Positions 2,461 to 18,114 of a DNA stretch of 64,000 nt are shown in pieces. Under the pieces are notes generated by a model. The model was given only the letters and a program-made list of their open reading frames with translations, did no database searches and was not told the DNA's origin. This DNA is from an uncultured Chloroflexia bacterium (GTDB taxonomy: Bacteria > Chloroflexota > Limnocylindria > Limnocylindrales > CSP1-4), in contig CAVQLA010000009.1 in the NCBI GenBank assembly GCA_963713285.1, forward strand, positions 1,652 through 65,651. The letters are read 5' to 3'. The first letter of the stretch is position 1; each line of letters starts with the position of its first letter. Both the position numbers and the translations under genes were made by a program.

Positions 2461-2674
2461 CTCCGGTGCGTCAACGCCTGTCCTTATGACGCGGGGCCGC
2501 CCGGCCTGTTGCGGACTTGGTGCCTACGCGGCATCTGTCGCGTTCGTGACGGACCACTCGCCAGCCTCCGAAGCTGCCGGCGTCCGCGAGGCCGGACGGC
2601 CCCCGAACGGGTGATGCCCCAGGGCCACCGGGGGATAAGCCGCATGTAGTGGTGGTCGCTACCCTGCTGGCGTG

Positions 2675-2835: not shown

Positions 2836-3214
2836 CGTGGGTGGAGACGCCCCCGGTCGCGCGCTGGCCCTGCCGATCGGTCACGCACGATGCGTTACCG
2901 GGGGATGCAGCCGGCGCCATCTCGCAACGGGGTTAGACGCCGCGGGTTGGTCGTCCTTCGCGTGACCGACCCCGGCGGCGCTTCCCGACGCTTGGGCTGG
3001 GCGCGGCAGGCGGGGCCGGAGCATCGGGCCAGTCCGGATACCCCGGCGTGCCTTGACCCGGGACTCTCATCACCTGGTCTGCGCTTCGCTTGTATGCCGC
3101 CATCAGCCCTGCTACGAGGCGGATGGGAAGAGCCTGTCTCCTGTCGCCTGTCATCTCGACCTTCCAGGGATTGCGCCTGTCAGCACGGGTTGGACGCAAT
3201 GGCGATCGCCGTTG

Positions 3215-3775
3215 TTACCGTGCAGGGCGGTCATCGGGTACCGCGCATGGACCTCTCGGCTCGGTGCGCAACCGGGCGGGGGAACGCATTGCCGGTCGCC
3301 CGTTGTTCGTGCGCGCCTGAGGCCTCCGGGCGACACCTGCGGACGCGCCAGCGTCCCGACATGAGACGGCCCTCAGGCCGACGTTCCGGGCTTCACCCTC
3401 CCTCTTTGCCCAGCGGACGATCCCGAACCCCAGTGCAACCGCGACGAGGTCGTAGACGATGAGACCGAGGACGAGCGGCCAGTACATTGCCAGCTCGGAG
3501 AGTTGTCCGCCCATGTTGAGGTGGGTCTGGACGCCGCCCAGCTCCAGCGGCACCTCGAGTGCCCAGCCCGATGCCGTGCCAACGAGAAGGCCCGCAAGGC
3601 TGGCAGGCCCCTCCGAGACGAGGCTGGTAACCGCACCGATCGCCAGCGGCAGAACCCAATACGGCCACAGCACCGGCTCCAAAGCCATCCACGGCATTGC
3701 CAGACCCGACAGGGCGACGCCCGCGACGCCGACCAGGAACGCTGTGATCGCGATGAGGAGCTGACGGCCCGACAT
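3215..3775 (-). CDS. hypothetical membrane protein; the hydrophobic core is ~130 aa and the 3' extent is uncertain
   Basis: MSGRQLLIAITAFLVGVAGVALSGLAMPWMALEPVLWPYWVLPLAIGAVTSLV...LVLGLIVYDLVAVALGFGIVRWAKRE. The start is an internal Met of the 287-aa ORF; upstream residues are Arg-rich noise. Confidence 0.35.
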   Translation of the reverse strand: MSGRQLLIAITAFLVGVAGVALSGLAMPWMALEPVLWPYWVLPLAIGAVTSLVSEGPASLAGLLVGTASGWALEVPLELGGVQTHLNMGGQLSELAMYWPLVLGLIVYDLVAVALGFGIVRWAKREGEARNVGLRAVSCRDAGASAGVARRPQARTNNGRPAMRSPARLRTEPRGPCAVPDDRPAR

Positions 3776-4164
3776 CACCTGGATCTCCGGAGCTGACTCG
3801 GCGCGGCCCACGGCCCCTGCTCGGATGATGAGTGTGCGTGTTCCCAGTGTGCGCGATCTGCTCTCCAAGCCGCGGGGAGGAACGCACGCAACGACCCTCA
3901 CTGGCGCCTCATGCCGCGCGGAACGCTTCGACCAACGCCTCCACGCCCTCGATGACGAAGGTTGGTGGCGTGCGTTCGGACCCCTCCGGGCGCGCCAGTC
4001 TGCTCGCTCAGGTGTCAATGGCCGCCGTCTGAAAGTCCCCACCTGTGGCCATGAGACCCGAGCGACGACCCGCTCCACTCGTCACGACTGTGAGCGACGC
4101 CGCAGACCACGCGGCCCCGTCGAAGAACGGGTCGTCGCTCTCGATGCTCTGGACGATGAAGCTG

Positions 4165-7100
4165 TCAGAACCGCCAAGTGATCGGTGCTCGAGGGTCGGG
4201 CGTGTAGGAGCAATAGGTTCCCGTGCGGATGGTGACGTCCAGGTGAGCGCTCAGCGCCGCGCTCTGGTCGCCGATCCGCGCCAGCGCTGCTCGGATCGTC
4301 CGCGTGACGCTGACCCGGGCCCGCTCGGCCGCGGAGGCGGCCAAGCGGTCACGACCGCCGAGTCCGAAAGCGGCCGTCAGCTCGCTGACCACCGCCTCGG
4401 ACTCGGCCCGCAGGCGCGCGGCGCGCTCGGGGTCGTTCCAGGCCTCCGCTCCGACAAGCTCCTCCTGAAGCTCATCGAGCCTCTTCCGGTAGGCGGCCTT
4501 CGCTTCCGAGTCGAGCACCGGCCCGGCGTCGCCGAGTCCGTCGGCCGAGAAGCCCGGGCCACCGACCGGACTCACATCGAGCCTCAACGCCTCGAGGCGT
4601 GCCAGCTCGAGAGCGTGCAGTTCCCGACCCGGCGCCCCCAGAAGGCGCGCCAGGTGACGCATGCCCTTCGCGTCCCGGATCCGGAATGCCTCCTGCCCGA
4701 ACTCGATCGTCCAGTAGTCGCCCTCGCGGCGAAACGTACCGGAGCTGAAGGGGGATCCGGGTGCCGCCGCCGACATCGGCTCCTTGGGCCCAGGGCGGAT
4801 CTGCCGCGCCAGCACCATGCCGAGCTCCTCCGCGGTGGCGAGCGCCGCACGGTCGAGCTGCTGGGCCCGTTCTCGATCGCCGGCGAGATTGCGACGCACC
4901 AGGACCTGGGCGAGATCGTGCTGGCTGTGGGCGGTCCACGGCCGAGCGCCCATGCGCTCGTTGCCAGCGATCGCCTCCGTCAGATGACGTTCCGCGTCGT
5001 CGAGCCGGCCGAGCGTGGCCGCGAGGAGGCCCAGGTAGCGATCGACTGCTCCGATACTTCCCTCGGCATGCCCGACCGCATGTCTCCCGGCGAAGGGGGC
5101 GAGCTGCTCATAGAGCGTGTCTGCCGCCGACGCATCGCCCAGCAGGGCGCACGCCTCGCTTGCCAGGCTCGTCCCGAACAGCCATTCGTTGTCCCTGTAG
5201 AGGGCCCGGAATTCATCCCCGGCCAGGTCCTCGAAGACGGCGCGGGCCTCCGCGATTCGATCCAGGTCGAACAGGAGGCACGCGAGCGCGGCCCGGTGCA
5301 ACGGGTACCACGGCAGCTCGTCGATGGAGGCTCGCACGGTGGACTCTTCCTCGGCGATCCGGCCCTGCTCACGACGGACCAGAAACCGTTGCATCCGAGC
5401 AGATGAGACGTCGTCGTTGGCAAACGTGACTCGATGGCGGGAGGACATCTCCCAGGCGATGAGCTCCTCCGCCAGGTCGAAGTCGCCTGCGAGCAGGGCG
5501 AGCTCGGCACGAGTCACCTGCTCCAGCCAGATCTCCGCCGGCTGACGCGGCTCCTCGGCGACTCGGCCGAGGGTCGTTGCCTCGGTTCGGGCCTCCGCGA
5601 TCCTGCCCTGTTCGCACAGGCTTCGGAACCGCACGAAGTGAGCGTCGGCGATTCGCTCGCCCTCCCCGAGCGCCTCGGCGATCTCCACCATCTCCCGCGC
5701 GATCGATTGACGCTCGTCGGGGTTCTCCGGCCACCAGGTTGCCCAGAAGCGGCAGCCGAGCGTGTAGCTGAGGCTCGCCGGGTCGTCCAGGCGCCGGGCG
5801 ATCTCGATCGCTTGCTGGCTCAGTGCCGCGCTGTCGTTCTTCCGCTCTGGCGAGCTGCGCCAGGCACACGCGAGCCGACCCAGGAGACGCGCGCGGAGAC
5901 GGTCATCGCTGCCGCCGAGCATGACCAACGCGTCCTGCAGGAGCGGGATCAAGCGCGTCTCCTTGCCCGGGCGCGCCCATGGGTGGCTACCACCGAACCC
6001 GAGCGCGGCTCGAGCCAGCTGCTGCCCGGTGCCGGTTCGCTTGGCGATCTTCGCGGCCTCGAGGAATGCCGTTCGCGCGTCGTCGATCTCGCCCGCTCGA
6101 GTCTGGGCGTCGCCAAGCGCGAGAAGAACCTCGGTCCGGGTGTGGTCATCCGGGACCTGACCGAGGTCGAGCACGGCCAGCGCCATCGAGTACAGCCGCG
6201 CCGACTCCTCGTACGCCAATGACCACGCCGCATCATCCCCGGCCCGCCTCGCATATTCGACGGCCTTGGACCCGATGCTCTCGACGTCGCTCAGCGCCAG
6301 GGTCTCGTCGCCTCCCTGTGCGGCTTCGACGTAGTGGAAGGCGAGCTCGGCCAGATGCGCATCGATCGTCGCTGCGTGAAACTCCTCGAGGACATGAGCG
6401 GCCCGGCGGTGGAGACGCACGCGCCGACCCGGCGACAGCTCGGCGTCCAGGGTCTCGCGCACGAGGTCGTGAGAGAAGCGGTACCGACCGAGCACACCGG
6501 AAACCGGCTGCAGCAGTCCGGCCTGCACCGCCTCATCGACGAGATCAAGCGCCTGGTCCGCTCCGTAGTCGCCGATCCGACGCAGGACCTCGAGGCTGAA
6601 TTCGGGGCCCAGCACGGCGCCCAGTCCGAGGGCCTGAACCGTTGCTTCGCTGAGGTGCCCGATCCGTCGGGCGATCACCGCCCGGACGCCCGCGGGAACG
6701 GCGACTCTCAGTGACAACGGGTCTGCGACCTCGCCGAGGCGACCCTCCGCCGACAGGAGGCGGACGGCTTCCCCGACGAACAGCGGATTGCCGCTCGTCT
6801 CGCGCCACACGGCCGCGACGAGGCGGCCGTGCGGGGTCACGTTCGCTGCCAGCTCGATGAACTGGCCGACCGCATCCGCTTCGAGCCCCGCGAGCATGAG
6901 CATCCGCGTGGACGGCTCGCGAGCGACCTCCGCGATCGCCAAGGCCAGCGGGTGCTCGGGCGTCAGCTCGACGTCGCGGTAGGTCCCCACCAGGAGCAGG
7001 GGCATGTCGCCAAGCTGGCTTGCCAGGAAGCGGAGGAAGAGGATGGACGGCGCGTCGGCTGCCTGCAGGTCGTCGAGGACCACGAGCAGGGGCTGGGCGC

Positions 7101-7545
7101 GTGCGGCGTTGCGCAGGAGCGTCGCGGTCGAGTCAAACAGCTGGAAGCGGGCGGACTCCGATCCGGTGTCGGCTGGCGGCGGGAGATCCGGGAACAGGTC
7201 ACGCAGCTCGGGCAGCATCTGGGCGATGTCGCCGGCTCCAGATCCCATGTGACGCCGGACAGCCTCCGTCTCGGTTGCCCGGAGGTATGCGCGCAGGGCC
7301 TGGACCCACGGCCAGTAGGGCGGCGCTCCGGCGTCCTCCCAGCCGCGGCCCCACAGGGCCAGGTGGCCTCGCTCTCGGGCTCGTGTCGCAAGCTTGTCTG
7401 CGAGGCGACTCTTGCCGATGCCCGGCTGGCCCCCGACCAGGACGAGGCGACCGCGGCCGGATGCCGCCTCAGCGAGCGCCTCCAGCAGCTCGCGAAGCTC
7501 ACGGTCGCGACCGACGAAGAATGAGCCTGACTGCAGCTGAACCAA
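4165..7545 (-). CDS. large P-loop NTPase (AAA_16/STAND-like N-terminal ATPase) with a TPR-like helical-repeat middle region and a distinctive C-terminal domain; tandem paralog A, 1126 aa
   Basis: N-terminus FVGRDRELRELLEALAEAASGRGRLVLVGGQPGIGKSRLAD...VVLDDLQ has Walker A and Walker B as in AAA_16 regulator/STAND NTPases. The long Ala/Leu/Arg-rich helical-repeat region fits TPR/SARP-like arrays. C-terminal ~200 aa (FRREGDYWTIEFGQEAFRIRDAKGMRHLARLLGAPGRELHALELA...) shows no recognisable HTH. It ends ...ALARIGDQSAALSAHLDVTIRTGTYCSYTPDPRAPITWRF. Confidence 0.75.
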   Translation of the reverse strand: MVQLQSGSFFVGRDRELRELLEALAEAASGRGRLVLVGGQPGIGKSRLADKLATRARERGHLALWGRGWEDAGAPPYWPWVQALRAYLRATETEAVRRHMGSGAGDIAQMLPELRDLFPDLPPPADTGSESARFQLFDSTATLLRNAARAQPLLVVLDDLQAADAPSILFLRFLASQLGDMPLLLVGTYRDVELTPEHPLALAIAEVAREPSTRMLMLAGLEADAVGQFIELAANVTPHGRLVAAVWRETSGNPLFVGEAVRLLSAEGRLGEVADPLSLRVAVPAGVRAVIARRIGHLSEATVQALGLGAVLGPEFSLEVLRRIGDYGADQALDLVDEAVQAGLLQPVSGVLGRYRFSHDLVRETLDAELSPGRRVRLHRRAAHVLEEFHAATIDAHLAELAFHYVEAAQGGDETLALSDVESIGSKAVEYARRAGDDAAWSLAYEESARLYSMALAVLDLGQVPDDHTRTEVLLALGDAQTRAGEIDDARTAFLEAAKIAKRTGTGQQLARAALGFGGSHPWARPGKETRLIPLLQDALVMLGGSDDRLRARLLGRLACAWRSSPERKNDSAALSQQAIEIARRLDDPASLSYTLGCRFWATWWPENPDERQSIAREMVEIAEALGEGERIADAHFVRFRSLCEQGRIAEARTEATTLGRVAEEPRQPAEIWLEQVTRAELALLAGDFDLAEELIAWEMSSRHRVTFANDDVSSARMQRFLVRREQGRIAEEESTVRASIDELPWYPLHRAALACLLFDLDRIAEARAVFEDLAGDEFRALYRDNEWLFGTSLASEACALLGDASAADTLYEQLAPFAGRHAVGHAEGSIGAVDRYLGLLAATLGRLDDAERHLTEAIAGNERMGARPWTAHSQHDLAQVLVRRNLAGDRERAQQLDRAALATAEELGMVLARQIRPGPKEPMSAAAPGSPFSSGTFRREGDYWTIEFGQEAFRIRDAKGMRHLARLLGAPGRELHALELARLEALRLDVSPVGGPGFSADGLGDAGPVLDSEAKAAYRKRLDELQEELVGAEAWNDPERAARLRAESEAVVSELTAAFGLGGRDRLAASAAERARVSVTRTIRAALARIGDQSAALSAHLDVTIRTGTYCSYTPDPRAPITWRF

Positions 7546-7796
7546 GATCTGGCCGCCCCGCTGCTCCCCGGGCGACCAAGGTCACCGACCCCCGTCGCCT
7601 GCGACATCGGATACCGCTCGGCACCACAGTACATACGTTCCCCGGGATGCGCGACGATTTTGGGATTTGTGTCGTGCGGTCGAACGCTCGTGCCGTCGAA
7701 TATCACGCCCCACTGGTAGAAGCGCCAACGGGCAAGCCCTTCTCTCGGGCGAGATCGTGGCGACAGTCGGTGCCAGGCAGGAGGCAAGACGATGAA

Positions 7797-10700
7797 TTAG
7801 GTCGGGCAGAGCTCGCGGACATTGCATGCGCACGGACGAGCCGACGTCTTCGGCCGGGCGCTCCTCATCGCGGTGGTCATCGTGGCCATCGCTTCTGCAG
7901 CGATCCTCGCGACCTCCTGGATCGCGGGATCAGCTTCCCGGAGCAGCGCCGGCTCGCAGGTCGATCCGCTCCGCCTGCCGGAGCTCATCGAGTTCCGTGC
8001 CGGCGAGCGCGTCATGGGCGCGACGCAGGTCGATCCGCTCCGCCTGCCGGAGCTCATCGAGTTCCGTGCCGGCGAGCGCGTCACGCCGATCCGCGCCAGC
8101 GCTGCTCGGATCGTCCGCGTGACGCTGACCCGCGCCCGCTCGGCCGCGGAGACGGCCAAGCGGTCACGACCGCCGAGTCCGAAAGCGGCCGTCAGCTCGC
8201 TGACCACCGCCTCGGACTCGGCCCGCAGGCGCGCGGCGCGCTCGGGGTCGTTCCAGGCCTCCGCTCCGACAAGCTCCTCCTGAAGCTCATCGAGCCTCTT
8301 CCGGTAGGCGGCCTTCGCTTCCGAGTCGAGCACCGGCCCGGCGTCGCCCAGTCCGTCGGCCGAGAAGCCCGGGCCACCGACCGGACTCACATCGAGCCTC
8401 AACGCCTCGAGGCGTGCCAGCTCGAGAGCGTGCAGTTCCCGACCCGGCGCCCCCAGAAGGCGCGCCAGGTGACGCATGCCCTTCGCGTCCCGGATCCGGA
8501 ATGCCTCCTGCCCGAACTCGATCGTCCAGTAGTCGCCCTCGCGGCGAAACGTACCGGAGCTGAAGGGGGATCCGGGTGCCGCCGCCGACATCGGCTCCTT
8601 GGGCCCAGGGCGGATCTGCCGCGCCAGCACCATGCCGAGCTCCTCCGCGGTGGCGAGCGCCGCACGGTCGAGCTGCTGGGCCCGTTCTCGATCGCCGGCG
8701 AGATTGCGACGCACCAGGACCTGGGCGAGATCGTGCTGGCTGTGGGCGGTCCACGGCCGAGCGCCCATGCGCTCGTTGCCAGCGATCGCCTCCGTCAGAT
8801 GACGTTCCGCGTCGTCGAGCCGGCCGAGCGTGGCCGCGAGGAGGCCCAGGTAGCGATCGACTGCTCCGATACTTCCCTCGGCATGCCCGACCGCATGTCT
8901 CCCGGCGAAGGGGGCGAGCTGCTCATAGAGCGTGTCTGCCGCCGACGCATCGCCCAGCAGGGCGCACGCCTCGCTTGCCAGGCTCGTCCCGAACAGCCAT
9001 TCGTTGTCCCTGTAGAGGGCCCGGAATTCATCCCCGGCCAGGTCCTCGAAGACGGCGCGGGCCTCCGCGATTCGATCCAGGTCGAACAGGAGGCACGCGA
9101 GCGCGGCCCGGTGCAACGGGTACCACGGCAGCTCGTCGATGGAGGCTCGCACGGTGGACTCTTCCTCGGCGATCCGGCCCTGCTCACGACGGACCAGAAA
9201 CCGTTGCATCCGAGCAGATGAGACGTCGTCGTTGGCAAACGTGACTCGATGGCGGGAGGACATCTCCCAGGCGATGAGCTCCTCCGCCAGGTCGAAGTCG
9301 CCTGCGAGCAGGGCGAGCTCGGCACGAGTCACCTGCTCCAGCCAGATCTCCGCCGGCTGACGCGGCTCCTCGGCGACTCGGCCGAGGGTCGTTGCCTCGG
9401 TTCGGGCCTCCGCGATCCTGCCCTGTTCGCACAGGCTTCGGAACCGCACGAAGTGAGCGTCGGCGATTCGCTCGCCCTCCCCGAGCGCCTCGGCGATCTC
9501 CACCATCTCCCGCGCGATCGATTGACGCTCGTCGGGGTTCTCCGGCCACCAGGTTGCCCAGAAGCGGCAGCCGAGCGTGTAGCTGAGGCTCGCCGGGTCG
9601 TCCAGGCGCCGGGCGATCTCGATCGCTTGCTGGCTCAGTGCCGCGCTGTCGTTCTTCCGCTCTGGCGAGCTGCGCCAGGCACACGCGAGCCGACCCAGGA
9701 GACGCGCGCGGAGACGGTCATCGCTGCCGCCGAGCATGACCAACGCGTCCTGCAGGAGCGGGATCAAGCGCGTCTCCTTGCCCGGGCGCGCCCATGGGTG
9801 GCTACCACCGAACCCGAGCGCGGCTCGAGCCAGCTGCTGCCCGGTGCCGGTTCGCTTGGCGATCTTCGCGGCCTCGAGGAATGCCGTTCGCGCGTCGTCG
9901 ATCTCGCCCGCTCGAGTCTGGGCGTCGCCAAGCGCGAGAAGAACCTCGGTCCGGGTGTGGTCATCCGGGACCTGACCGAGGTCGAGCACGGCCAGCGCCA
10001 TCGAGTACAGCCGCGCCGACTCCTCGTACGCCAATGACCACGCCGCATCATCCCCGGCCCGCCTCGCATATTCGACGGCCTTGGACCCGATGCTCTCGAC
10101 GTCGCTCAGCGCCAGGGTCTCGTCGCCTCCCTGTGCGGCTTCGACGTAGTGGAAGGCGAGCTCGGCCAGATGCGCATCGATCGTCGCTGCGTGAAACTCC
10201 TCGAGGACATGAGCGGCCCGGCGGTGGAGACGCACGCGCCGACCCGGCGACAGCTCGGCGTCCAGGGTCTCGCGCACGAGGTCGTGAGAGAAGCGGTACC
10301 GACCGAGCACACCGGAAACCGGCTGCAGCAGTCCGGCCTGCACCGCCTCATCGACGAGATCAAGCGCCTGGTCCGCTCCGTAGTCGCCGATCCGACGCAG
10401 GACCTCGAGGCTGAATTCGGGGCCCAGCACGGCGCCCAGTCCGAGGGCCTGAACCGTTGCTTCGCTGAGGTGCCCGATCCGTCGGGCGATCACCGCCCGG
10501 ACGCCCGCGGGAACGGCGACTCTCAGTGACAACGGGTCTGCGACCTCGCCGAGGCGACCCTCCGCCGACAGGAGGCGGACGGCTTCCCCGACGAACAGCG
10601 GATTGCCGCTCGTCTCGCGCCACACGGCCGCGACGAGGCGGCCGTGCGGGGTCACGTTCGCTGCCAGCTCGATGAACTGGCCGACCGCATCCGCTTCGAG

Positions 10701-11360
10701 CCCCGCGAGCATGAGCATCCGCGTGGACGGCTCGCGAGCGACCTCCGCGATCGCCAAGGCCAGCGGGTGCTCGGGCGTCAGCTCGACGTCGCGGTAGGTC
10801 CCCACCAGGAGCAGGGGCATGTCGCCAAGCTGGCTTGCCAGGAAGCGGAGGAAGAGGATGGACGGCGCGTCGGCTGCCTGCAGGTCGTCGAGGACCACGA
10901 GCAGGGGCTGGGCGCGTGCGGCGTTGCGCAGGAGCGTCGCGGTCGAGTCAAACAGCTGGAAGCGGGCGGACTCCGATCCGGTGTCGGCTGGCGGCGGGAG
11001 ATCCGGGAACAGGTCACGCAGCTCGGGCAGCATCTGGGCGATGTCGCCGGCTCCAGATCCCATGTGACGCCGGACAGCCTCCGTCTCGGTTGCCCGGAGG
11101 TATGCGCGCAGGGCCTGGACCCACGGCCAGTAGGGCGGCGCTCCGGCGTCCTCCCAGCCGCGGCCCCACAGGGCCAGGTGGCCTCGCTCTCGGGCTCGTG
11201 TCGCAAGCTCGTCTGCGAGGCGACTTTTACCGATGCCCGGCTGGCCCCCGACCAGGACGAGGCGACCGCGGCCGGATGCCGCCTCAGCGAGCGCCTCCAG
11301 CAGCTCGCGAAGCTCACGGTCGCGACCGACGAAGAATGAGCCTGACTGCAGCTGAACCAA
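7797..11360 (-). CDS. large P-loop NTPase-TPR protein, tandem paralog B, 1187 aa. Near-identical to A over ~1090 aa, with a different, longer C-terminal tail read from the duplicated upstream repeat module
   Basis: Translation is identical to paralog A except for a few substitutions (e.g. ADKLATRAR->ADELATRAR, LAASAAER->LAVSAAER) up to ...TIRAALARIG. It then diverges into a Ser/Arg-rich tail containing two copies of VTRSPARNSMSSGRRSGSTC, encoded by the 60-bp tandem repeat. DNA 8080-11360 matches 4265-7545. Confidence 0.7.
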   Translation of the reverse strand: MVQLQSGSFFVGRDRELRELLEALAEAASGRGRLVLVGGQPGIGKSRLADELATRARERGHLALWGRGWEDAGAPPYWPWVQALRAYLRATETEAVRRHMGSGAGDIAQMLPELRDLFPDLPPPADTGSESARFQLFDSTATLLRNAARAQPLLVVLDDLQAADAPSILFLRFLASQLGDMPLLLVGTYRDVELTPEHPLALAIAEVAREPSTRMLMLAGLEADAVGQFIELAANVTPHGRLVAAVWRETSGNPLFVGEAVRLLSAEGRLGEVADPLSLRVAVPAGVRAVIARRIGHLSEATVQALGLGAVLGPEFSLEVLRRIGDYGADQALDLVDEAVQAGLLQPVSGVLGRYRFSHDLVRETLDAELSPGRRVRLHRRAAHVLEEFHAATIDAHLAELAFHYVEAAQGGDETLALSDVESIGSKAVEYARRAGDDAAWSLAYEESARLYSMALAVLDLGQVPDDHTRTEVLLALGDAQTRAGEIDDARTAFLEAAKIAKRTGTGQQLARAALGFGGSHPWARPGKETRLIPLLQDALVMLGGSDDRLRARLLGRLACAWRSSPERKNDSAALSQQAIEIARRLDDPASLSYTLGCRFWATWWPENPDERQSIAREMVEIAEALGEGERIADAHFVRFRSLCEQGRIAEARTEATTLGRVAEEPRQPAEIWLEQVTRAELALLAGDFDLAEELIAWEMSSRHRVTFANDDVSSARMQRFLVRREQGRIAEEESTVRASIDELPWYPLHRAALACLLFDLDRIAEARAVFEDLAGDEFRALYRDNEWLFGTSLASEACALLGDASAADTLYEQLAPFAGRHAVGHAEGSIGAVDRYLGLLAATLGRLDDAERHLTEAIAGNERMGARPWTAHSQHDLAQVLVRRNLAGDRERAQQLDRAALATAEELGMVLARQIRPGPKEPMSAAAPGSPFSSGTFRREGDYWTIEFGQEAFRIRDAKGMRHLARLLGAPGRELHALELARLEALRLDVSPVGGPGFSADGLGDAGPVLDSEAKAAYRKRLDELQEELVGAEAWNDPERAARLRAESEAVVSELTAAFGLGGRDRLAVSAAERARVSVTRTIRAALARIGVTRSPARNSMSSGRRSGSTCVAPMTRSPARNSMSSGRRSGSTCEPALLREADPAIQEVARIAAEAMATMTTAMRSARPKTSARPCACNVRELCPT
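7958..8086. repeat. 60-bp tandem repeat, ~2 copies
   Basis: caggtcgatccgctccgcctgccggagctcatcgagttccgtgccggcgagcgcgtcatgggcgcgacg repeated. Same unit as at 11775-11960. Confidence 0.9.
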
Positions 11361-11607
11361 GGTCTGGCTGCCCCGCTGCTCCCCGGGCGACCAAGGTCAC
11401 CGACCCCCGTCGCCTGCGACATCGGATCCCGCTCGGCACCACAGTACATACGTTCCCCGGGATGCGCGACCGATTTTGGGATTCGTGTCGTGCGGTCGAA
11501 CGCTCGTGCCGTCGAATCTCACGCCCCACTGGTAGAGGCGCCAACGACAAGCCCCTCTCTTGGGCGAGATCGTGGCGACAGTCGAGTGCCAGGCAGGAGG
11601 CAGGACG

Positions 11608-11985
11608 ATGAGTCAGGTCGAGCAGAGCTCGAGGACATTGCATGCGCACGGACGAGCCGACGTCTTCGGCCGGGCGCTCCTCATCGCGGTGGTCATCGTG
11701 GCCATCGCTTCTGCAGCGATCCTCGCGACCTCCTGGATCGCGGGATCAGCTTCCCGGAGCAGCGCCGGCTCGCAGGTCGATCCGCTCCGCCTTCCGGAGC
11801 TCATCGAGTTCCGGGCCGGCGAGCGCGTCATGGGCGCGACGCAGGTCGATCCGCTCCGCCTTCCGGAGCTCATCGAGTTCCGTGCCGGCGAGCGCGTCAT
11901 GGGCGCGACGCAGGTCGATCCGCTCCGCCTTCCGGAGCTCATCGAGTTCCGGGCCGGCGAGCGCGTCATGGGCGAGAGTCGCTAG
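11608..11985 (+). CDS. hypothetical small membrane protein with three 20-aa tandem repeats, 125 aa; divergent from paralog B
   Basis: ATG preceded by aggagg at optimal spacing (caggcaggaggcaggacgATG). N-terminal TM helix ALLIAVVIVAIASAAILATSWIAG. Then (QVDPLRLPELIEFRAGERVMGAT)x3 and a stop directly after the third repeat. The copy upstream of paralog A (7789-8283) is degenerate (ATG AAT TAG). Confidence 0.4.
   Translation: MSQVEQSSRTLHAHGRADVFGRALLIAVVIVAIASAAILATSWIAGSASRSSAGSQVDPLRLPELIEFRAGERVMGATQVDPLRLPELIEFRAGERVMGATQVDPLRLPELIEFRAGERVMGESR
11775..11960. repeat. 60-bp tandem repeat, 3 copies
   Basis: The same 60-bp unit (ctgccg->cttccg variants) occurs three times in tandem and ends just before the stop of ORF 11608-11985. 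Confidence 0.9.
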
Positions 11986-12194
11986 CACCAGCGGGCAGGC
12001 GGATCGGCTTGCCCGGGCAGGGGCGGCGATCCGCCTGCTTGTCGAGGGCCGACGCTGGGCCAATCTGCCGAGCACGATGCTCGCGCAGCACGGGCGAGGG
12101 CGTGCGCGGGTGCGAGGCCGCATCATCGAAAGCACCCACGCCTTGTGACCGTCGCGGTGCGGCGTCACGGTCACGGCTGGCGCGGGATCAGTAG

Positions 12195-12282
12195 TGCTCG
12201 ATCGTGGCGGAGAGGGTGGGATTCGAACCCACGGGGCGCGAAGGCCCTGCGGTTTTCAAGACCGCTCCGATAAACCACTCCG
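12195..12282 (-). tRNA. tRNA-Ser (anticodon UGA), type II with long variable arm, CCA encoded
   Basis: Reverse complement reads GGAGAGGTGCCGGAGTGGTTTATCGGAGCGGTCTTGAAAACCGCAGGGCCTTCGCGCCCCGTGGGTTCGAATCCCACCCTCTCCGCCA. It has a 7-bp acceptor stem, anticodon loop CTTGAAA (TGA), a long extra arm, T-loop GGTTCGAATCC and 3' CCA. Confidence 0.92.
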
Positions 12283-12490
12283 GCACCTCTCCGCGGTGCG
12301 CACGACGAGGATACCGGGCGAGCCGATGGATGCGGAGCCTGGCGGCGATCGCCGGCGGCGCCGGCGGCACCGGCGCGCGTTGCCCGCGCCACCGGCCCGC
12401 GCGTTGCCGGCGGTTGGGCGTTCGCGTACTGTCCCGTCGTCGGCGCCCGGGCCAACTCCCGGGCAGGACCCGAAGGAGACCATCCGACCG

Positions 12491-12883
12491 ATGCCCGCGC
12501 CGCTCGGCAAGGTCCCCACGAAGAAGATGCCGAACATCCAGGTCTTCGGCACCGACGATTCGCCGGCGACCCGCGCGGCGCTCCGGTTCTTCCGCGAGCG
12601 CCGGATCGTCGTGCACTACGTGGACCTGCGCAAGAAGCCGATCGCCCACGGCGAGCTCCGCCGGTTCACGGACCGGCTGGGTGCCGCCGCGCTCCTGGAC
12701 CCGGAGAGCCGCGCGTACCGTGAGGGCGGCCTCGCCTACCTGGCGACCGACACCGCGGGCATCGTCGCCCGGCTGCTCGCGGACGCGCGACTGATGCGCC
12801 TCCCCCTGGTCCGCCACGGCGAGGAGGTCACGGCGGGCAGGGACGAGGCGACCTGGAAGGCGTGGCTGGCGCGACCGAGGTAG
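12491..12883 (+). CDS. ArsC/Spx-family (glutaredoxin-fold, YffB-like) protein
   Basis: MPNIQVFGTDDSPATRAALRFFRERRIVVHYVDLRKKPIAHGELRRF...LDPESRAYRE fits the ArsC/Spx fold family. The usual Cys pair is absent. Start may be at 12527. Confidence 0.6.
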   Translation: MPAPLGKVPTKKMPNIQVFGTDDSPATRAALRFFRERRIVVHYVDLRKKPIAHGELRRFTDRLGAAALLDPESRAYREGGLAYLATDTAGIVARLLADARLMRLPLVRHGEEVTAGRDEATWKAWLARPR

Positions 12884-12901
12884 GCCGAGCTGGCCAGCCT
12901 C

Positions 12902-14650
12902 TCAGTCCGGCGAGGCGATGGTCGCGTCGACCGCGGCGACCGGGACCCAGGCCAGGAAGAGCGTGGCAGGGTCGGCCGGCGTGCCGTCGGCACCGGCGAT
13001 CCCGGCCATCACGAGACGCACGCCGGCCGGCAGGCCGGTGATCTCGAAGCGAGCCGGAGTCGCAGGGTCGGCCGTCAGCTCCAGGAGCGTCTGCAGGGGC
13101 TCGGCGGCGCGCGAGGGCTCCACGGCGATCGACCGGACGAGAAGCCGCGGCCGCCCCGGGGGGCCCTCCATCGCCGCCACGGCCAGCCCCGGGTCCTGTG
13201 CCGGCGCGGCGTCGGCGACCGCCAGGCTGATGGTCCCGGGCTCCGTCGCCGGGATCGTCGTGATCCGTCCCGCGGGCGGGGTCCGCCCGAGGAGGGCGTC
13301 GTCGCGCGGGCTCGCGACGTCGAGCGGCGCGAGGACGGGAGGGCCGGCGGGCTCGCCGGTCACGAGGGCGGCCGCGGGCAGCACCCGGCCGATGGCACCG
13401 CCATCCCCGGCAAGCCGGACGGCGACCACGGACGGGGTGGCGGGAGCGGCAAGGCGGACCACGGTGGCGCCACCGGCGGCGATGGACGCGTCCAGGGGGA
13501 TCTCGGCGAGGAGGTGCGCGTCCAGGGATGGGTCGAGGGGAAGCGCCCAGGCTTCGACGACGGTCGGGGTCCCGGCCCCGGCAGCCTCGATCGGCTCGCG
13601 GCCCAGGTTCGTGACCGTCGCCGCCAGCATCCCGTCGGGATCGACCGCCAGACCGATGCTCGCCTCGCGCTCGGCGGCGACGCGCACCGTCAGCGGCCGG
13701 ATCGCCGGGCGGTCCGACTTCGGCAGGGGCGCGCCGTCGCTGTCGCGCGCCTCGACCTCCAGGCGCCAGAGGCCCGGCTGGCTCGGGGCGGTGAGGCCGA
13801 GACGAAGGACGCGGCCCGGCCTGTTGGTGCGCTTCACGATCGTCCACGTCGACGCCGGCGCTGCATCGGGCGCGCCGTCCGACGCCTCCACCACCGCCAT
13901 CGGCGTCCACCGGACGGCGAACCGGATGGCGGGCGGCAGCACGGCCCCCGGGCGCGCCCTCCACGCCACCTCGAGGGAGACCGGCGCTCCCGCGACCGGC
14001 CGGCCGGCGAGGGCGAGGGGGCCGAAGTGCACACCGCGTTCCTTGAGCGTGACGACGAGCCGGTCGAGGCTGTTCGCGATGACCGCGATCTTGTCGGCCC
14101 AGCGCACGTCGGACGCGTAGTAGCGGTTCATGGCCCGCAGGGTGGTGAAGCGGTACCAGTACCGGCCGTCCGGGGAGAGGTAGCCCTCGCGGACCTTCTT
14201 CGCGACGGCCAGGATCCCCTGGCGGTAGCTGCGGAAACGGGTCGCGTAGCGCCACGGGTTGCGATCGTAGGCGCCGTACCCGAAGAGGTTGTGCTTGACC
14301 CGGGCGATGGCGGAGGTCCCCCACCCGCTCTCGAGCATGGCGTGGGCGACGAACGTGCGCGCGTTGATCCCCTGGCGGCGCTCGGCCGCGAGGAACGCAG
14401 ACCCGAGCCGGGGGAGGCTGGTGGTGGCGCCCAGCACCTCGTCGATCATCCACGCCGCATACCCCGACGTGGAGAGGACATCCGTGTTGGGGGTGACGGG
14501 CCGCCCGACGCGGTAGGTCGTCATCGACCGGGGCTCGATCTTGCGCGACGGCGAGCGCGCCTCCGCCGGGACGGCGGGGACGGCGGCGGCGAGGGCGAGA
14601 ACGACGGCGAGCGCGGTGGGGACGGCGCGCCGGAGCAGGGCAGTTCGCAT
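12902..14650 (-). CDS. secreted glucosaminidase-domain (FlgJ/mannosyl-glycoprotein endo-beta-N-acetylglucosaminidase family) protein with a long C-terminal extension
   Basis: Signal-like N-terminus MRTALLRRAVPTALAVVLALAAAVPAVPA. Glucosaminidase motif block FLAAERRQGINARTFVAHAMLESGWGTS...HNLFGYGAYD. Internal-Met start chosen at the signal peptide. Confidence 0.7.
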   Translation of the reverse strand: MRTALLRRAVPTALAVVLALAAAVPAVPAEARSPSRKIEPRSMTTYRVGRPVTPNTDVLSTSGYAAWMIDEVLGATTSLPRLGSAFLAAERRQGINARTFVAHAMLESGWGTSAIARVKHNLFGYGAYDRNPWRYATRFRSYRQGILAVAKKVREGYLSPDGRYWYRFTTLRAMNRYYASDVRWADKIAVIANSLDRLVVTLKERGVHFGPLALAGRPVAGAPVSLEVAWRARPGAVLPPAIRFAVRWTPMAVVEASDGAPDAAPASTWTIVKRTNRPGRVLRLGLTAPSQPGLWRLEVEARDSDGAPLPKSDRPAIRPLTVRVAAEREASIGLAVDPDGMLAATVTNLGREPIEAAGAGTPTVVEAWALPLDPSLDAHLLAEIPLDASIAAGGATVVRLAAPATPSVVAVRLAGDGGAIGRVLPAAALVTGEPAGPPVLAPLDVASPRDDALLGRTPPAGRITTIPATEPGTISLAVADAAPAQDPGLAVAAMEGPPGRPRLLVRSIAVEPSRAAEPLQTLLELTADPATPARFEITGLPAGVRLVMAGIAGADGTPADPATLFLAWVPVAAVDATIASPD

Positions 14651-14894
14651 GGGTCGCCGGTCACGATGCGGGTGCACCGGCCGCCCGACCACGACCCGAC
14701 GGTCCGCCCGCGGCTGGCCCCATCGTCCGGGCGCACCGGGCACTCGATCCGCGTTCGACCGGTGCTCGCACTCGCGGCGGCCGTTCCCCGATCCAAGCCC
14801 CGGGGCTCGGCCGATATAGCATCAGCGGGCAAACCACCTGCACACGAGACCCTGTCCAAGCGCAGAGCCCCTGCGCGCCCACCCCGGAGGCCCC

Positions 14895-15737
14895 GTGCTC
14901 CGACGGCTCCTGGGCGGCGCGAACGACCGCATCGCCGCGGAGATCGCCCCGACCCGCCACCTGATCGACCTGCGCCGCGTGGTGAAGGACTACGTGACCG
15001 ACGCCGGGTCGTTCCGGGCGCTTCGCGACGTGGACCTCCAGGTGGACGCCGGCGAGTTCATCGCCGTCGTCGGGAAGTCCGGGTCGGGCAAGTCGACGCT
15101 GATGAACATGATGACGGGCATCGACCGGGCCACCGCCGGCGACGTCTGGGTCGGCGGCACCCACCTCAACCACCTGTCGGAAGGCGCGACGGCCGTCTGG
15201 CGCGGCCGAACCGTCGGCGTGATCTTCCAGTTCTTCCAGCTCCTGCCGACGCTGACCGTCGTCGAGAACGTGATGCTGCCCATGGACTTCGGCGGCCTGT
15301 GGACGCCGAAGGAGCGCGAGGAGCGGGCGATGGCGCTCCTCGAGCAGGTGGAGATGGTCGACCAGGCGCGCAAGCTGCCCTCGGCGACCTCGGGCGGGCA
15401 GCAGCAGCGCGTCGCGATCGCGCGGGCGCTGGCCAACGACCCGCCGATCCTCGTCGCGGACGAGCCGACGGGCAACCTGGACTCCGCGACCGCGGAGGCG
15501 GTGATCCGGCTGTTCGACGAGCTGGTCGCCGCCGGCAAGACCATCGTCATGGTGACCCACGACCGGGAGATCGCGTCGCACGCGCGGCGGACGGTCCACA
15601 TGGTCGACGGGAACCTCCTCGACGGGACCCTTCCGGACGAGGAGGCCCTGCCCGCGGCAGCGGGTGCCCTGGATCCGGTGGCGGCTGGCGCGTCCGCGGC
15701 CCCGGGTGCGCCCGCGGCGCCCGTCGCCGGTGCATAG
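14895..15737 (+). CDS. ABC transporter ATP-binding protein (MacB/FtsE/LolD-type)
   Basis: Walker A GKSGSGKST, Q-loop, signature SGGQQQRVAIARAL, Walker B ILVADEPTGNLD. GTG start. Confidence 0.9.
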   Translation: MLRRLLGGANDRIAAEIAPTRHLIDLRRVVKDYVTDAGSFRALRDVDLQVDAGEFIAVVGKSGSGKSTLMNMMTGIDRATAGDVWVGGTHLNHLSEGATAVWRGRTVGVIFQFFQLLPTLTVVENVMLPMDFGGLWTPKEREERAMALLEQVEMVDQARKLPSATSGGQQQRVAIARALANDPPILVADEPTGNLDSATAEAVIRLFDELVAAGKTIVMVTHDREIASHARRTVHMVDGNLLDGTLPDEEALPAAAGALDPVAAGASAAPGAPAAPVAGA

Positions 15738-18114
15738 CATCCGCTGGCGCAAGGTCGTCCGCGACCTGGGGGTCGCGCGGACCCGCACCGTCCTGGTCGT
15801 CCTCTCCATCGCGGTCGGCGTGTTCGCCGTCGGCACGATCGCCGGCGCCAACGCGCTCCTCCGCGACGGACTGCGCGAGAAGTACCTCGCCAGTCGCCCC
15901 GCGAGCGCCACGATCTCCGCGTCGGCGTTCGGCGACGACCTGGTCGAGACCGTCGGCGAGATGCCCGGGATCGCCGACGCCGAGGCCCGCCGCAGCGTGA
16001 CGGTCCGGCTCCGCACCGGCCCCGAGACGTTCCGCGAGCTGCAGCTCACCGCGATCACCGACTTCGAGGACCAGCGCCTCGACCTCGTGACGCCCGAGCC
16101 CGGCGCCGCCTGGCCGCCGGCCCGCGGCGAGATGCTCCTGGAGCGCTCGAGCCTCACCCTCGCCGACGTCCCGACCTCGGGGGAGGTGGAGATCCAGACG
16201 GTCGACGGCAAGCTCCACACCCTGCGCGTCGCGGGCCTGTCGCACGAGGTGGGAGCGTCCCCGGCCTTCTACATCGGGCGCCTGCAGGGCCACATCACGT
16301 TCGAGACGCTCGACGACCTCGGCTTCGGGACGGCCTACGACGAGCTCCGGATCCTGGCCGACGACGCGACGCTGACCCGCGCCGAGATCCGCACCCTCGC
16401 CGAGACCGTCCGCGAGCGGATGGAGCGGGCCGGCGCCTCGGTCATCTTCGTCTTCGTCCCGCCACCCGGCGAGCACCCGGCCAACGACCTGCTGGCCGGC
16501 GTCTTCCTCGTCCTGGGCTTCCTCGGGCTGCTCGCGCTCCTCGCCTCCGGCTTCCTGGTGGTCAACACGGTGAACGCCATCATCGCCCAGCAGACCCGCC
16601 AGATCGGGGTCATGAAGGCGGTCGGCGCCCGGAACCGGCAGGTCGCCGTCCTGTACCTCGGGATGGTGCTGGCGTATGCGGTCCTCTCGCTGGGCGTCGC
16701 CCTGCCGCTGGGCGCCCTCGGCGCGTACGGCCTGACGGTCTTCACGGCGAGCCTCGTCAACTTCGACGTCACGACCTTCTTCGCCCCGCCGGACGTGATC
16801 GCGCTCGAGGTGGCGGTCGGGCTGCTCGTGCCGCTCCTTGCGGCACTCGTGCCGGTCTGGCACGGCGTGCGGGTCACCGTGCGTGAGGCGGTGAGCAGCA
16901 CGGGGCTCGCGGATCGGTTCGGAAGGAGCCGCTTCGACCGGGCGATCCAGCGGATCCACGGGCTCCCGCGGCCCACGCTCCTGTCCATCCGCAACACGTT
17001 CCGCCGCAAGTCGCGGCTCCTGCTGACCCTGTCGGCCCTGACGCTCGGGGCGGCCGTCTTCATGGCCGTCTTCACGGTGCGGTCGTCGCTCTACCAGACC
17101 CTCGACGACGCCCTCGCCTACTTCGACTACGACGTCCAGGTGGAGCTCGCCGGGTCCGCCCGGGCCGACCTGCTCGAGACGGAGGCATCGCGGGTCCCGG
17201 GCGTCACGGCCGCCGAGGCGTGGCGCTTCGCGACGACCCAGCGCATCCGCGCCGACGGGGCCGAGAGCCGCTCGTTCATCACCTTCGGGCTCCCGCCGGA
17301 GACCACGATGGTGCGCCCGAAGCTCCAGGAGGGCCGCTGGTTGGTCCCGGCCGACGGGAACGCGCTGGTCGCCACGGCGAACATCCGCGAGGACGAGCCC
17401 GACGTCCGCGTCGGCGACGCCATCACGCTGCGGGTCAACGGGCGCGATGCCACGTGGACGCTGGTCGGGATCGTCGAATCCCCGACCCAGCGCCCCTTCC
17501 TGTACGCGAACGCCGGCCCGCTGGAGCAGGCCGCCCGCGACGTGGGCCGGGCCACGGTGGTGATGCTCCGCACGGACACGCGCGACGCGGCGACCCAGGA
17601 TCGCGTCGGCAACGCGGCCGCCGACCACCTCGAGACGGTCGGCGTCCGGGTCGCGGCGACGACGACGATCGCCGAGGTCCGGACGACCCAGGAGCGCCTC
17701 TTCGACGTGCTGGTCATCTTCCTCTCCACGATGGCGCTCCTCCTCGGCGTCGTGGGCGGCCTCGGCCTGACCGGCACCATGAGCATCAACGTCGTGGAGC
17801 GGGCCCGCGAGATCGGCGTGATCCGCGCCGTCGGCGCGTCGGACGGCGCGGTCCTGCGCCTCTTCCTCGCGGAAGGGCTCCTGATCGGCCTCATCTCGTG
17901 GGCCGTCGGCGCGCTGCTCGCGATCCCCATCAGCCGGACCCTGTCGGACGCGCTGGGGATGGTCTTCCTGTCGCGCCCGCTCTCCTACTCGATCAGCGCC
18001 GAGGGAGTCATCCTCTGGCTCGGCATCGTCCTCGTCCTGGCCGCGGTCGCCAGCCTCTTCCCCGCCTGGCGCGCGTCGCGGCTCGCCGTGCGGGAGGTCC
18101 TCGCCTACGAATGA
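15730..18114 (+). CDS. ABC transporter permease with duplicated FtsX/MacB-type domains (~795 aa)
   Basis: GTG start overlaps the ATPase stop by 8 nt (GTGCATAG). Two FtsX-like 4-TM modules, each preceded by a large extracytoplasmic loop. C-terminal ...ISRTLSDALGMVFL...REVLAYE. Confidence 0.85.
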   Translation: MHSIRWRKVVRDLGVARTRTVLVVLSIAVGVFAVGTIAGANALLRDGLREKYLASRPASATISASAFGDDLVETVGEMPGIADAEARRSVTVRLRTGPETFRELQLTAITDFEDQRLDLVTPEPGAAWPPARGEMLLERSSLTLADVPTSGEVEIQTVDGKLHTLRVAGLSHEVGASPAFYIGRLQGHITFETLDDLGFGTAYDELRILADDATLTRAEIRTLAETVRERMERAGASVIFVFVPPPGEHPANDLLAGVFLVLGFLGLLALLASGFLVVNTVNAIIAQQTRQIGVMKAVGARNRQVAVLYLGMVLAYAVLSLGVALPLGALGAYGLTVFTASLVNFDVTTFFAPPDVIALEVAVGLLVPLLAALVPVWHGVRVTVREAVSSTGLADRFGRSRFDRAIQRIHGLPRPTLLSIRNTFRRKSRLLLTLSALTLGAAVFMAVFTVRSSLYQTLDDALAYFDYDVQVELAGSARADLLETEASRVPGVTAAEAWRFATTQRIRADGAESRSFITFGLPPETTMVRPKLQEGRWLVPADGNALVATANIREDEPDVRVGDAITLRVNGRDATWTLVGIVESPTQRPFLYANAGPLEQAARDVGRATVVMLRTDTRDAATQDRVGNAAADHLETVGVRVAATTTIAEVRTTQERLFDVLVIFLSTMALLLGVVGGLGLTGTMSINVVERAREIGVIRAVGASDGAVLRLFLAEGLLIGLISWAVGALLAIPISRTLSDALGMVFLSRPLSYSISAEGVILWLGIVLVLAAVASLFPAWRASRLAVREVLAYE

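Follow-up and report, generated by a model that had tools for sequence, protein, structure and literature searches.

Tandem duplication across a divergent regulator/small repeat-protein gene pair in an uncultured Chloroflexia bacterium, with a chimeric reading frame at the junction

The 64,000-nucleotide stretch of DNA analyzed here (the window) comes from an uncultured Chloroflexia bacterium and contains two copies of a large minus-strand gene, one of them chimeric, and two copies of a small plus-strand gene, one of them a remnant. The locus comprises the following features.

3972 to 3997, minus strand: 3' remnant of a tRNA-Arg (23 of 26 nt), at which homology to the locus of a close relative, L001, ends.
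4165 to 7545, minus strand: big gene A, intact, 1126 aa, with an AAA_16 P-loop ATPase at its N-terminus, then TPR repeats and a conserved domain at the C-terminus.
4269 to 8083, no strand: duplication unit 1, 3815 nt, from repeat spacing and pairwise alignment (26 differences).
7546 to 7791, no strand: proximal intergenic (promoter) region upstream of gene A, 95.9% identical to 11361-11607 and carrying the L001 allele at 8 sites.
7792 to 8083, plus strand: small-gene remnant, with ATG AAT TAG at 7792-7800, a TM segment and 1.87 repeat units, cut by the junction.
7797 to 11360, minus strand: big gene B, chimeric, 1187 aa, from the translations.
8083 to 8084, no strand: the single novel junction, placed by alignment of 4260-4275, 8075-8090 and 11891-11906 and by the first and last matching positions of the copies.
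8084 to 11899, no strand: duplication unit 2, 3816 nt, from repeat spacing and pairwise alignment.
11361 to 11607, no strand: distal intergenic region, from which B and the intact small gene diverge, aligned with the relatives L001, L002, L003 and L013.
11608 to 11985, plus strand: intact small gene, 125 aa, recognized by its RBS, TM helix, repeats, homologues and synteny.
11988 to 12040, plus strand: strong hairpin just past the small-gene stop (fold -50.9 kcal/mol, z -3.5), a candidate terminator that lacks a T tract and is kept in L001 and L002.
12205 to 12292, minus strand: tRNA-Ser(UGA), found by ARAGORN and by Rfam (tRNA, 58 bits), its 3' end toward the module.

The spacing of repeat families D2, D3 and D5 (3815/3816) and base-level pairwise alignment delimit a tandem, head-to-tail duplication of the whole 3815/3816-bp unit. 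An earlier note on this DNA had recognized a duplication but confined it to a module of ~450 bp upstream of each big gene, at ~90% identity; the actual figure for these modules is 96.3% (20 differences in 538 nt), and the full units are 96-100% identical across 3.8 kb, which is not a chance product. Unit 1 comprises all of the big gene except its last 34 codons, then the intergenic region and the first 292 nt (5') of the small gene. The outer breakpoints fall at 4268/4269, 34 codons ahead of the regulator stop, and at 11899/11900, after nucleotide 59 of the small gene's second repeat unit, and the big gene's 3' 104 nt and the small gene's last 86 nt lie outside the duplication as single copies. 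At the junction, 8083/8084, position 59 of small-gene repeat unit 2 abuts big-gene codon 1093; sequences compared around the three breakpoint sites share no microhomology beyond chance. A tblastn search with the small protein found these two unit copies in the window and none further, and the closest relatives, L001 (97% nucleotide identity) and L002 (96%), each have a single unit that aligns with both window copies at one place. The duplication thus appears restricted to this lineage, and the ancestral locus was probably a two-gene divergent module with regulator and small gene 247 nt apart. Head-to-tail duplication of a 3815-bp segment would have created the one junction and left a single intact copy each of the regulator (A) and the small gene, now 3.8 kb apart.

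Taken as a whole, the structural account (the duplication, its junction, an antisense tail on B in a shadow frame, and a plus-strand ORF that is a real gene) has in our estimate a probability of about 0.8. It resembles the spontaneous tandem segmental duplications of bacteria that create chimeric join genes, with two head-to-tail copies, one non-homologous junction, relatives that are single-copy, a fused and a truncated ORF at the join, and redundant parts that decay (a nonsense codon at codon 3). It differs in that the two copies, identical at their centers, bear distinct population alleles toward the edges, which points to later short-patch recombination or to the polishing of mixed strains.

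The distribution of differences is strongly uneven. Across 3277 nt the big-gene bodies differ at 6 positions, none of them in the central 2860 nt (4535-7394), from which we infer that the duplication is very recent; the difference in density between body and upstream module is pronounced (Fisher P = 7e-13). Within 7546-7830 there are 17 differing sites, and 8 of these pair an L001 allele in the proximal copy with an L002 allele in the distal one, all in the same direction (P = 7e-5). Most of the 26 differences therefore probably arose by short-patch recombination with co-circulating alleles rather than by mutation. A diversity-generating mechanism was considered for the copy differences and rejected, since the substitutions are not adenine-specific and match the alleles of relatives. 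Polishing of a strain mixture could also yield an identical central 2.86 kb with allele-like differences at the edges. An assembly or polishing artefact, in which the genome has one unit and a strain mixture or chimeric read led the assembler to set two haplotypes in tandem, would account for module copies that hold different population alleles at 8 sites around an invariant center, for the single unit in close relatives and for a search of JGI metagenome contigs in which the junction-spanning 28-mer was absent. We nevertheless consider it quite improbable: the junction links non-homologous sequences, a repeat array and a big-gene 3' end, a join that mis-traversal of a haplotype graph cannot make and that needs real or chimeric molecules; both reading frames are intact across 3.3 kb; and the proximal copy has private changes (TAG at 7798, 7816 and others, polarized with L001 and L002) that fit decay of a real redundant copy. 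The duplication is known from one assembly, and an exact-sequence look-up of the window's own small protein in the gene-position index gave no record.

In the intact small gene, an AGGAGG RBS at 11595-11600, 7 nt ahead of the ATG, precedes a protein with a positively charged N-terminus, one hydrophobic TM helix (~residues 23-44), a linker and three tandem repeats, QVDPLRLPELIEFRAGERVMGAT. The earlier note had read the RBS and helix correctly and had the repeat count right; its unit length of 20 aa was not, since the array (11771-11974) is made of 23-aa (69-nt) units with the core DPLxxPxLIEFRAGER, and the stop does not follow the last repeat immediately but comes three codons (ESR) past a modified final unit. 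The knockout of the proximal ORF at codon 3 is confirmed as a CAG>TAG change at 7798 that is derived in the proximal copy when polarized with L001 and L002. The remnant otherwise matches the intact protein at 97% over residues 1-97 (tblastn); with its array truncated to 1.87 repeats and the nonsense codon in place, it is a pseudogene. Its array, 7955-8083, spans 129 nt (1.9 copies by TRF) and ends at the position that corresponds to 11899 in the distal copy. The proximal copy does have fewer units, as claimed, but this reflects no independent change in number: the breakpoint cuts an ancestral three-repeat array after 1.87 units, and so produces at once the apparent 2-versus-3 difference and the antisense tail of B. 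The proposal that the region is a junction artefact of tandem duplication is thereby borne out, given single-copy L001 and L002 and a breakpoint that suffices to explain both the repeat counts and the tail.

Big gene B follows A exactly over residues 1-1092 (8085-11360) except for K51E and an A>V change. Beyond the junction B would read on for 95 codons through the antisense of the pseudogene, to an antisense stop that is also present in the single-copy relatives; as had been described, these last 95 codons (7800-8084) are antisense to the proximal ORF in the frame that shares third codon positions with it, and the B stop (7797-7799) overlaps small-gene codons 2-3. In GC-rich genomes an antisense frame that shares wobble positions rarely meets stops, as the sense codons TTA, CTA and TCA that would produce them are seldom used. 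The B frame is open for this reason, as it shares third positions with a gene of 85% GC3, and it is open in single-copy relatives too, where L001 has a 120-aa ORF at 9387-9749 in that very frame. Stop counts show nearly all alternative frames of this GC-rich DNA to be open, so openness is no evidence of coding. With GC1 below GC2, both the B tail and the L001 ORF resemble ordinary shadow ORFs, the difference being that here the frame has been physically joined to a real gene and would be translated if B is expressed.

It had been left unclear which strand, if either, is under selection. The minus-strand read-through could in principle be the selected product, with the 95-residue tail (VTRSPARNSMSSGRRSGSTC repeats) serving as a functional new C-terminus or the antisense frame as a gene of its own; the frame is open in relatives, and its dN/dS is no worse than that of the sense frame (0.53-0.98 for the small gene, similar in both frames, across five loci and the first 80 codons). 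Since wobble positions are shared, however, similar ratios on the two strands are to be expected; the strand-by-strand dN/dS comparison suggested in the earlier note cannot discriminate between them, the ratios are high, and selection on the small protein has to be read from motif conservation and architecture. Antisense GC1 (0.50) lies below GC2 (0.72), whereas real genes here show the opposite order; openness is what sharing of wobble positions with an 85% GC3 gene predicts; no gene runs into the antisense frame in single-copy relatives; sense-frame similarity reaches further than antisense in distant loci; and the tail displaces near-invariant residues of a conserved domain. A selected minus-strand product is thus scarcely credible. 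The sense frame, by comparison, has GC1/2/3 of 0.72/0.50/0.85, resembling 0.76/0.51/0.83 in gene A, and the pattern GC1 > GC2 < GC3 recurs in 12 of 12 loci tested; six-frame tblastn scores the sense frame highest in 7 of 9 distant loci. L001, L002 and L003 retain both GGAGG and the ATG (L013 has GGGGG). Together, the RBS, TM helix, GC1>GC2, family size and synteny indicate that the plus-strand ORF is a real gene and largely settle the strand question in its favor.

The homologue search suggested earlier for the 125-aa protein found the plus-strand ORF conserved. A word-index search returned 35 homologues and a profile search 240 clusters at E<=1e-3, with a TM helix in 172 of the 181 family sequences examined; homologous proteins of 79, 102 and 125 aa are 75-89% identical. 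In ~19 of 30 related Chloroflexota loci the small gene is found upstream of the big gene in divergent orientation, and a crude filter found no small TM-repeat ORF in the other 11; the most distant homologue, P0033, does not adjoin an AAA_16 gene. An [IV]E[FY]RAGER core is near-invariant in the family while linkers diverge; repeat-unit cores include, for example, IEFRAGER, DGWEAGL and SYDQIEAxRG, and paralogous pairs bear different motifs (L021 and L033, from one MAG). By the positive-inside rule, 119 of 133 informative family members are predicted to be N-in/C-out (119 versus 14), with a mean of 2.1 K+R flanking the helix on its N-terminal side and 1.0 on its C-terminal side. Pfam, NCBIfam, PADLOC and PDB sequence searches with the small protein gave only sub-threshold noise (DUF7012, DUF6350), and the family has neither a Pfam model nor a solved structure.

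Repeat number varies among relatives, with 3 units in L001, 5 in L002, 7 in L003 and 5 in L013; units are 97-100% identical within an array and 73-95% between genomes. Array copy number is truly variable between lineages (1-7) and homogenized within each array. This repeat-number polymorphism among relatives is a property of contingency loci, and the suggestion of a contingency-type variable region holds to that extent: the array expands and contracts over time. It fails for the difference within the window. It is very improbable that programmed or slippage-driven gain or loss of units followed the duplication here, because the proximal array stops mid-unit exactly at the junction, so that no slippage is required, and because 69-nt units that lie in frame inside the coding sequence cannot toggle expression through frame or promoter spacing as classical short-repeat contingency loci do.

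The big gene matches AAA_16 (5.5e-27, residues 10-186), TPR_12, TPR_2 and TPR_4 in Pfam, and its ATPase-helical part (residues 10-411) has a below-cutoff match to NCBIfam TOMM_kin_cyc. STAND proteins are signal-sensing P-loop ATPases with a repeat sensor domain, and by its domain order, an N-terminal AAA_16 P-loop followed by a TPR sensor region, the predicted product is a regulator of the STAND kind. The conserved C-terminal domain of ~190 aa has a putative OmpR/PhoB-like winged-helix fold, is fused elsewhere to receiver or PadR domains, and has neither a Pfam model nor a solved structure. Large ATP-binding STAND regulators include MalT of the LAL family and proteins of the AfsR/SARP type, which likewise combine a P-loop NTPase, a helical/TPR sensor and a DNA-binding domain in one polypeptide. 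Here, however, the putative DNA-binding domain is C-terminal and OmpR-like, rather than LuxR-type as in MalT or N-terminal OmpR-like plus BTAD as in AfsR, and the C-terminal module adds long helices and a conserved tail that no Pfam model covers. B has 95 antisense codons in place of the conserved last 34 residues, a region modeled confidently by AF2 whose near-invariant positions include L207, H210, T214, R216, T217, G218, C221, Y223, P225, D226, P227, R228, P230 and W233 (C-terminal alignment numbering). With this element lost, B is probably inactive or interfering. Among the PADLOC anti-phage defence models the big gene matched only mad8 (E 0.0084, over the P-loop) and the small protein none; no viral contig matched the big gene, and there is thus no sign of phage origin.

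Blocks in the distal intergenic region are conserved down to relatives of 77% identity, and a 13-nt direct repeat, TCGTGC[G/C]GTCGAA, occurs twice in 11488-11516 with period 16 as a candidate operator. Rfam on 3800-12400 at E<=1 matched only tRNA, so the conserved blocks are not a known RNA. A scan for consensus promoters and terminators returned nothing, and the organism probably departs from sigma-70/T-tract consensus. The tRNA-Ser(UGA) marks the right edge of a lower-GC region by composition, and no integrase or other mobility gene was recognized in 1-4100.

What might the gene pair do? By guilt by association we posit, tentatively and expecting that it may well prove wrong, that the small protein and the regulator form a peptide-ligand/receptor-regulator pair. 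The small protein would insert N-in/C-out with its repeats facing outside the cell, and its repeat unit, present in several copies, would serve as a peptide ligand or bait that the neighboring ATPase regulator would sense through its TPR region, either directly, after processing and uptake, or indirectly; the putative winged helix would then act on the conserved shared intergenic region. Another reading, possible and likewise short of probable, makes the small protein (i) a mere regulated target at the surface or envelope, or (ii) a tether at the membrane or an anti-regulator, with repeats that bind the TPR region in the cytoplasm and hold or nucleate the ATPase. The divergent layout and conserved shared intergenic region fit a regulator with its target, an oligomerizing STAND ATPase could be bound multivalently by tandem identical units, and no peptidase, exporter or peptide importer (including a linked one of the Opp type) was found conserved beside the pair. 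Cytoplasmic tethering, however, runs against the positive-inside rule, which places the repeats outside in nearly all informative family members. The data fit a pure target and a ligand alike.

Two kinds of known system offer parallels for a ligand role. Multi-copy peptide precursors such as the yeast alpha-factor prepro-protein, which contains tandem mature units, resemble the small protein in having an N-terminal export segment and, behind it, near-identical units in tandem, in numbers that differ between strains; the small protein differs in being bacterial and in having no recognizable dibasic processing sites. The other kind comprises the RRNPP-type peptide signaling pairs of Bacillota, Rap/Phr, NprR/NprX, PlcR/PapR, Rgg/SHP and AimR/AimP (PMC13361665, PMC12445099). 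As in these pairs, a cytoplasmic TPR regulator lies beside a gene for a small exported protein with a conserved short motif in its C-terminal part, in this case a TM protein with predicted external repeats at the ~19 syntenic loci. The receptor, in contrast, is a 1126-aa P-loop ATPase with a putative C-terminal OmpR-like winged helix, where RRNPP receptors are HTH-TPR proteins of 300-400 aa; a long TM anchor and 1-7 tandem 23-aa units characterize the small protein; the genes are divergent, have no linked import or processing genes and are known from sequence alone; and the phylum is Chloroflexota.

The junction itself carries little weight, being an ordinary, textbook case of chimeric-ORF formation by tandem duplication, yet the locus holds two cautions for the annotation of MAGs: tandem duplication makes chimeric ORFs, and GC-rich antisense frames masquerade as coding sequence. 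The valuable part is the gene pair: uncultured soil Chloroflexota repeatedly encode, divergent from a large regulator with ATPase, TPR and putative winged-helix parts, small single-pass proteins of a family of ~240 clusters. In its fullest form the ligand/receptor proposal is speculative and on balance unlikely: the pair would be a previously undescribed peptide-signaling or self-sensing module of Chloroflexota (with at least one example in Actinomycetota), in which a membrane-anchored precursor shows or releases 1-7 tandem, fast-evolving 23-aa units as the cognate ligand of the adjacent regulator's TPR sensor, copy number sets dose or valency, and the duplication described here has just uncoupled ligand and receptor, leaving a tail-less, possibly dominant-negative receptor. 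If the repeats are indeed ligands of the TPR sensor, they would extend the peptide-receptor logic of RRNPP signaling to a new phylum and a new class of receptor, and the arrays of 1-7 repeats would provide a natural allele series for testing it.

The window carries a 3815/3816-bp unit twice, head to tail (4269-8083 and 8084-11899), as both the 3815-3816 spacing of its repeat families and base-level alignment indicate. Within a copy, 246-247 nt of intergenic DNA separate most of a large minus-strand regulator gene from the 5' part of a small gene on the plus strand, which encodes a membrane protein.

Features of the duplicated region (window coordinates)
4165-7545, minus strand: ORF A, large regulator, 1126 aa
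7797-11360, minus strand: ORF B, large regulator, 1187 aa
7955-8083: proximal repeat array, 129 nt, 1.87 units
11608-11985, plus strand: intact (distal) small ORF, 125 aa, with AGGAGG 7 nt 5' of the ATG

The proximal array stops precisely where sequence homologous to the big gene's 3' part sets in, 8084 corresponding to 4269, and its position 8083 matches 11899 in the distal array; the ancestral array thus comprised three units, and one duplication breakpoint lay inside unit 2. That breakpoint alone explains the count of two versus three repeats, and the earlier note's suggestion of a junction artefact of tandem duplication was right: the junction lies at 8083/8084, and the nearest relatives are single-copy. 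The second breakpoint falls 34 codons ahead of the big-gene stop; no microhomology was seen at the join when the sequence on either side of it was inspected.

When one genome per species was scanned, collinear homologues of the big protein turned up at 77 loci, mostly in uncultured Chloroflexota ("Chloroflexia"/Limnocylindria MAGs), then in Actinomycetota and others. Both window copies match one place in each of the two nearest relatives, the loci L001 (97%) and L002 (96%); the unit is thus single there, and the duplication is specific to the window's lineage. Homology to these loci stops ~200 nt past the big-gene stop and ~70-100 nt past the small-gene stop; the flanks beyond are unrelated between them and the window. 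Differences between the two copies are very unevenly spread: the 3277-nt gene body has six, none of them in 4535-7394, and the 538-nt module (intergenic region plus small gene) has 20 (Fisher P = 7e-13). Eight of the 17 differences in 7546-7830 are states that separate L001 from L002, and at all eight the L001 state is found proximally and the L002 state distally (P = 7e-5), in patches at 7554-7805 and 11369-11621, respectively. Most simply read, the unit would have been duplicated very recently and its copies then altered by short-patch recombination with co-circulating alleles; alternatively, the mosaic could stem from polishing of a strain mixture. That the duplication is purely an assembly artefact is improbable because non-homologous sequences meet at the junction, although the junction 28-mer was not found in JGI metagenome contigs.

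Residues 1-1092 of the chimeric B are those of A, bar two replacements, and are followed by a tail of 95 codons (7800-8084) antisense to the truncated small gene, with a stop at 7797-7799. The corresponding triplet is also a stop in the distal copy, L001 and L002, there TGA rather than TAA. The tail frame and the small gene have their third codon positions in common, and the antisense frame is open in single-copy relatives too (e.g., L001 9387-9749), as expected from shared third positions opposite a gene with 85% GC3. B's antisense tail is a shadow-frame by-product. The 34 residues missing from B include many near-invariant positions, so B is probably defective or interfering. The proximal small gene opens ATG AAT TAG at 7792, as had been described; only this copy has the nonsense change, C>T at 7798, as expected of a gene that is redundant and truncated.

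The intact distal protein has a positively charged N-terminus, a single hydrophobic helix and three tandem units of QVDPLRLPELIEFRAGERVMGAT, the last closing in ...GESR directly before the stop; a strong hairpin is predicted by folding 3' of it (-50.9 kcal/mol, z -3.5). The features reported in the earlier note are real but partly mis-measured, the unit being 69 nt (23 aa) rather than 20 aa. That note had left undecided which strand is selected. Start signals, codon-position composition, six-frame scores, a homologue family and synteny all point to the plus-strand ORF as the true gene, of an uncharacterised family. The ATG and ribosome-binding site are kept at equal spacing in L001, L002 and two further related loci, L003 and L013. 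GC1/GC2/GC3 is 0.72/0.50/0.85, versus 0.76/0.51/0.83 for gene A, a pattern seen likewise in 12/12 orthologous ORFs tested, whereas the antisense frame would give GC1 < GC2. In six-frame comparisons with distant loci, the sense frame scored highest in seven of nine. The dN/dS test that the note had proposed was not decisive: values of 0.53-0.98 were alike for sense and antisense frames because the two share wobble positions.

Homologues of the plus-strand ORF, for which the note had advised a search, were found in related genomes by tblastn and ORF inspection. A word search gave 35 homologous small proteins, and a profile search across 1.84 billion representatives gave 240 clusters at E<=1e-3. 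Nearly all members are 70-225 aa long; a TM helix, beginning near residue 22, is present in 172 of 181 sequences, and whereas the linkers diverge, [IV]E[FY]RAGER hardly varies. The N-terminal flank is richer in K+R in 119 members and shows the opposite bias in 14; the positive-inside rule thereby places the repeats, by prediction, outside the cell. Searches of Pfam, NCBIfam, PADLOC and PDB found no relatives of the small protein. At ~19 of the 30 loci with a big protein >=50% identical, the small gene sits immediately upstream of its large neighbour and on the other strand (tblastn plus ORF inspection), and two more contigs reached via the small protein share this divergent arrangement. The most distant IEFRAGER-repeat protein, P0033 (contig L078, 6001-6324), has no adjoining AAA_16 gene; its gene is flanked by one for cytochrome c assembly and one for a class II ribonucleotide reductase. 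Linkage of the small family to the regulator is therefore not strict. On two contigs, L081 (4110-5807 / 2426-3967) and L083 (4341-7811), the small gene's large neighbour is split into two or three consecutive ORF calls, probably through frameshift errors or pseudogenisation in long-read assemblies.

Close homologues of 79, 102 or 125 aa contain one, two or three units, and the arrays number three units in L001, five in L002, seven in L003 and five in L013. Repeat number therefore does vary between lineages, but the two-versus-three contrast here was set by the breakpoint. Units are 97-100% identical inside one array versus only 73-95% across genomes; the arrays thus undergo continual homogenisation and resizing. 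Among the big gene's more distant partners, the architecture of a TM helix plus tandem 17-26-aa units is retained but the cores are different (DGWEAGL, SYDQIEAxRG, AAFWAEERELGG, SGAYIRE), and one MAG has two paralogous pairs whose cores differ (L021, L033).

The tRNA gene beside the two-gene module changes from relative to relative, being Arg in L001 (13549-13625), Lys in L002 (13468-13542), Gly in the related locus L038 (13482-13557) and Ser in the window (12205-12292), and a 26-nt remnant of a tRNA-Arg 3' end (3972-3997, minus strand) lies exactly where L001 homology ends; together these suggest that the module may travel on, or within, tRNA-targeting islands. Composition left of tRNA-Ser looks island-like (~1000-12200: GC 0.68-0.70, gene GC3 0.83-0.85; right of it, 12300-30000: GC 0.72-0.80, GC3 0.92-0.98). 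No integrase or other mobility gene was recognised by Pfam in 1-4100. A perfect 51-nt tandem repeat of 2.3 copies (CGGGCGCTCGGCCGAGCCACTTCCGGCTCCGCTAGGACACCACCGACGGCA) occupies 836-950, where no gene was recognised, and a 135-nt direct repeat (81% identity) is dispersed at 1211-1345 and 2649-2783, 1.4 kb apart in low-GC, unannotated sequence to the left of the big gene.

The big protein combines Pfam AAA_16 (5.5e-27) with TPR repeats, the TPR region spanning about residues 430-900; a search for defence-system matches returned none. Its last ~190 aa (4168-~4740, minus strand, in A) form a widespread domain without a Pfam model, matched by 960 database proteins at E<=1e-5 and found also standalone (about 190-230 aa) or joined to a receiver (PF00072) or PadR (PF03551) domain; it looks like an output domain not yet catalogued, built around a winged-helix core. 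The shared intergenic region, which has no Rfam match, contains blocks kept even in relatives at only 77% overall identity. Within such a block a 13-nt direct repeat, TCGTGC[G/C]GTCGAA (TCGTGCSGTCGAA), occurs twice with period 16 at 11488-11516, and likewise at 7672-7700; it may serve as an operator for the regulator with its putative winged helix. We favour, at a probability of about 0.3, a model in which the small protein would be exported as a multi-copy peptide or bait; the neighbouring ATP-dependent regulator, with its putative winged helix, would sense this through its TPR domain and in turn act on the shared intergenic region. In the main functional alternative, the small protein would be just a regulated target, or a tether. 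RRNPP signalling is the nearest functional analogy to the peptide-sensing model, but the receptor architecture of the window regulator places it outside that group.
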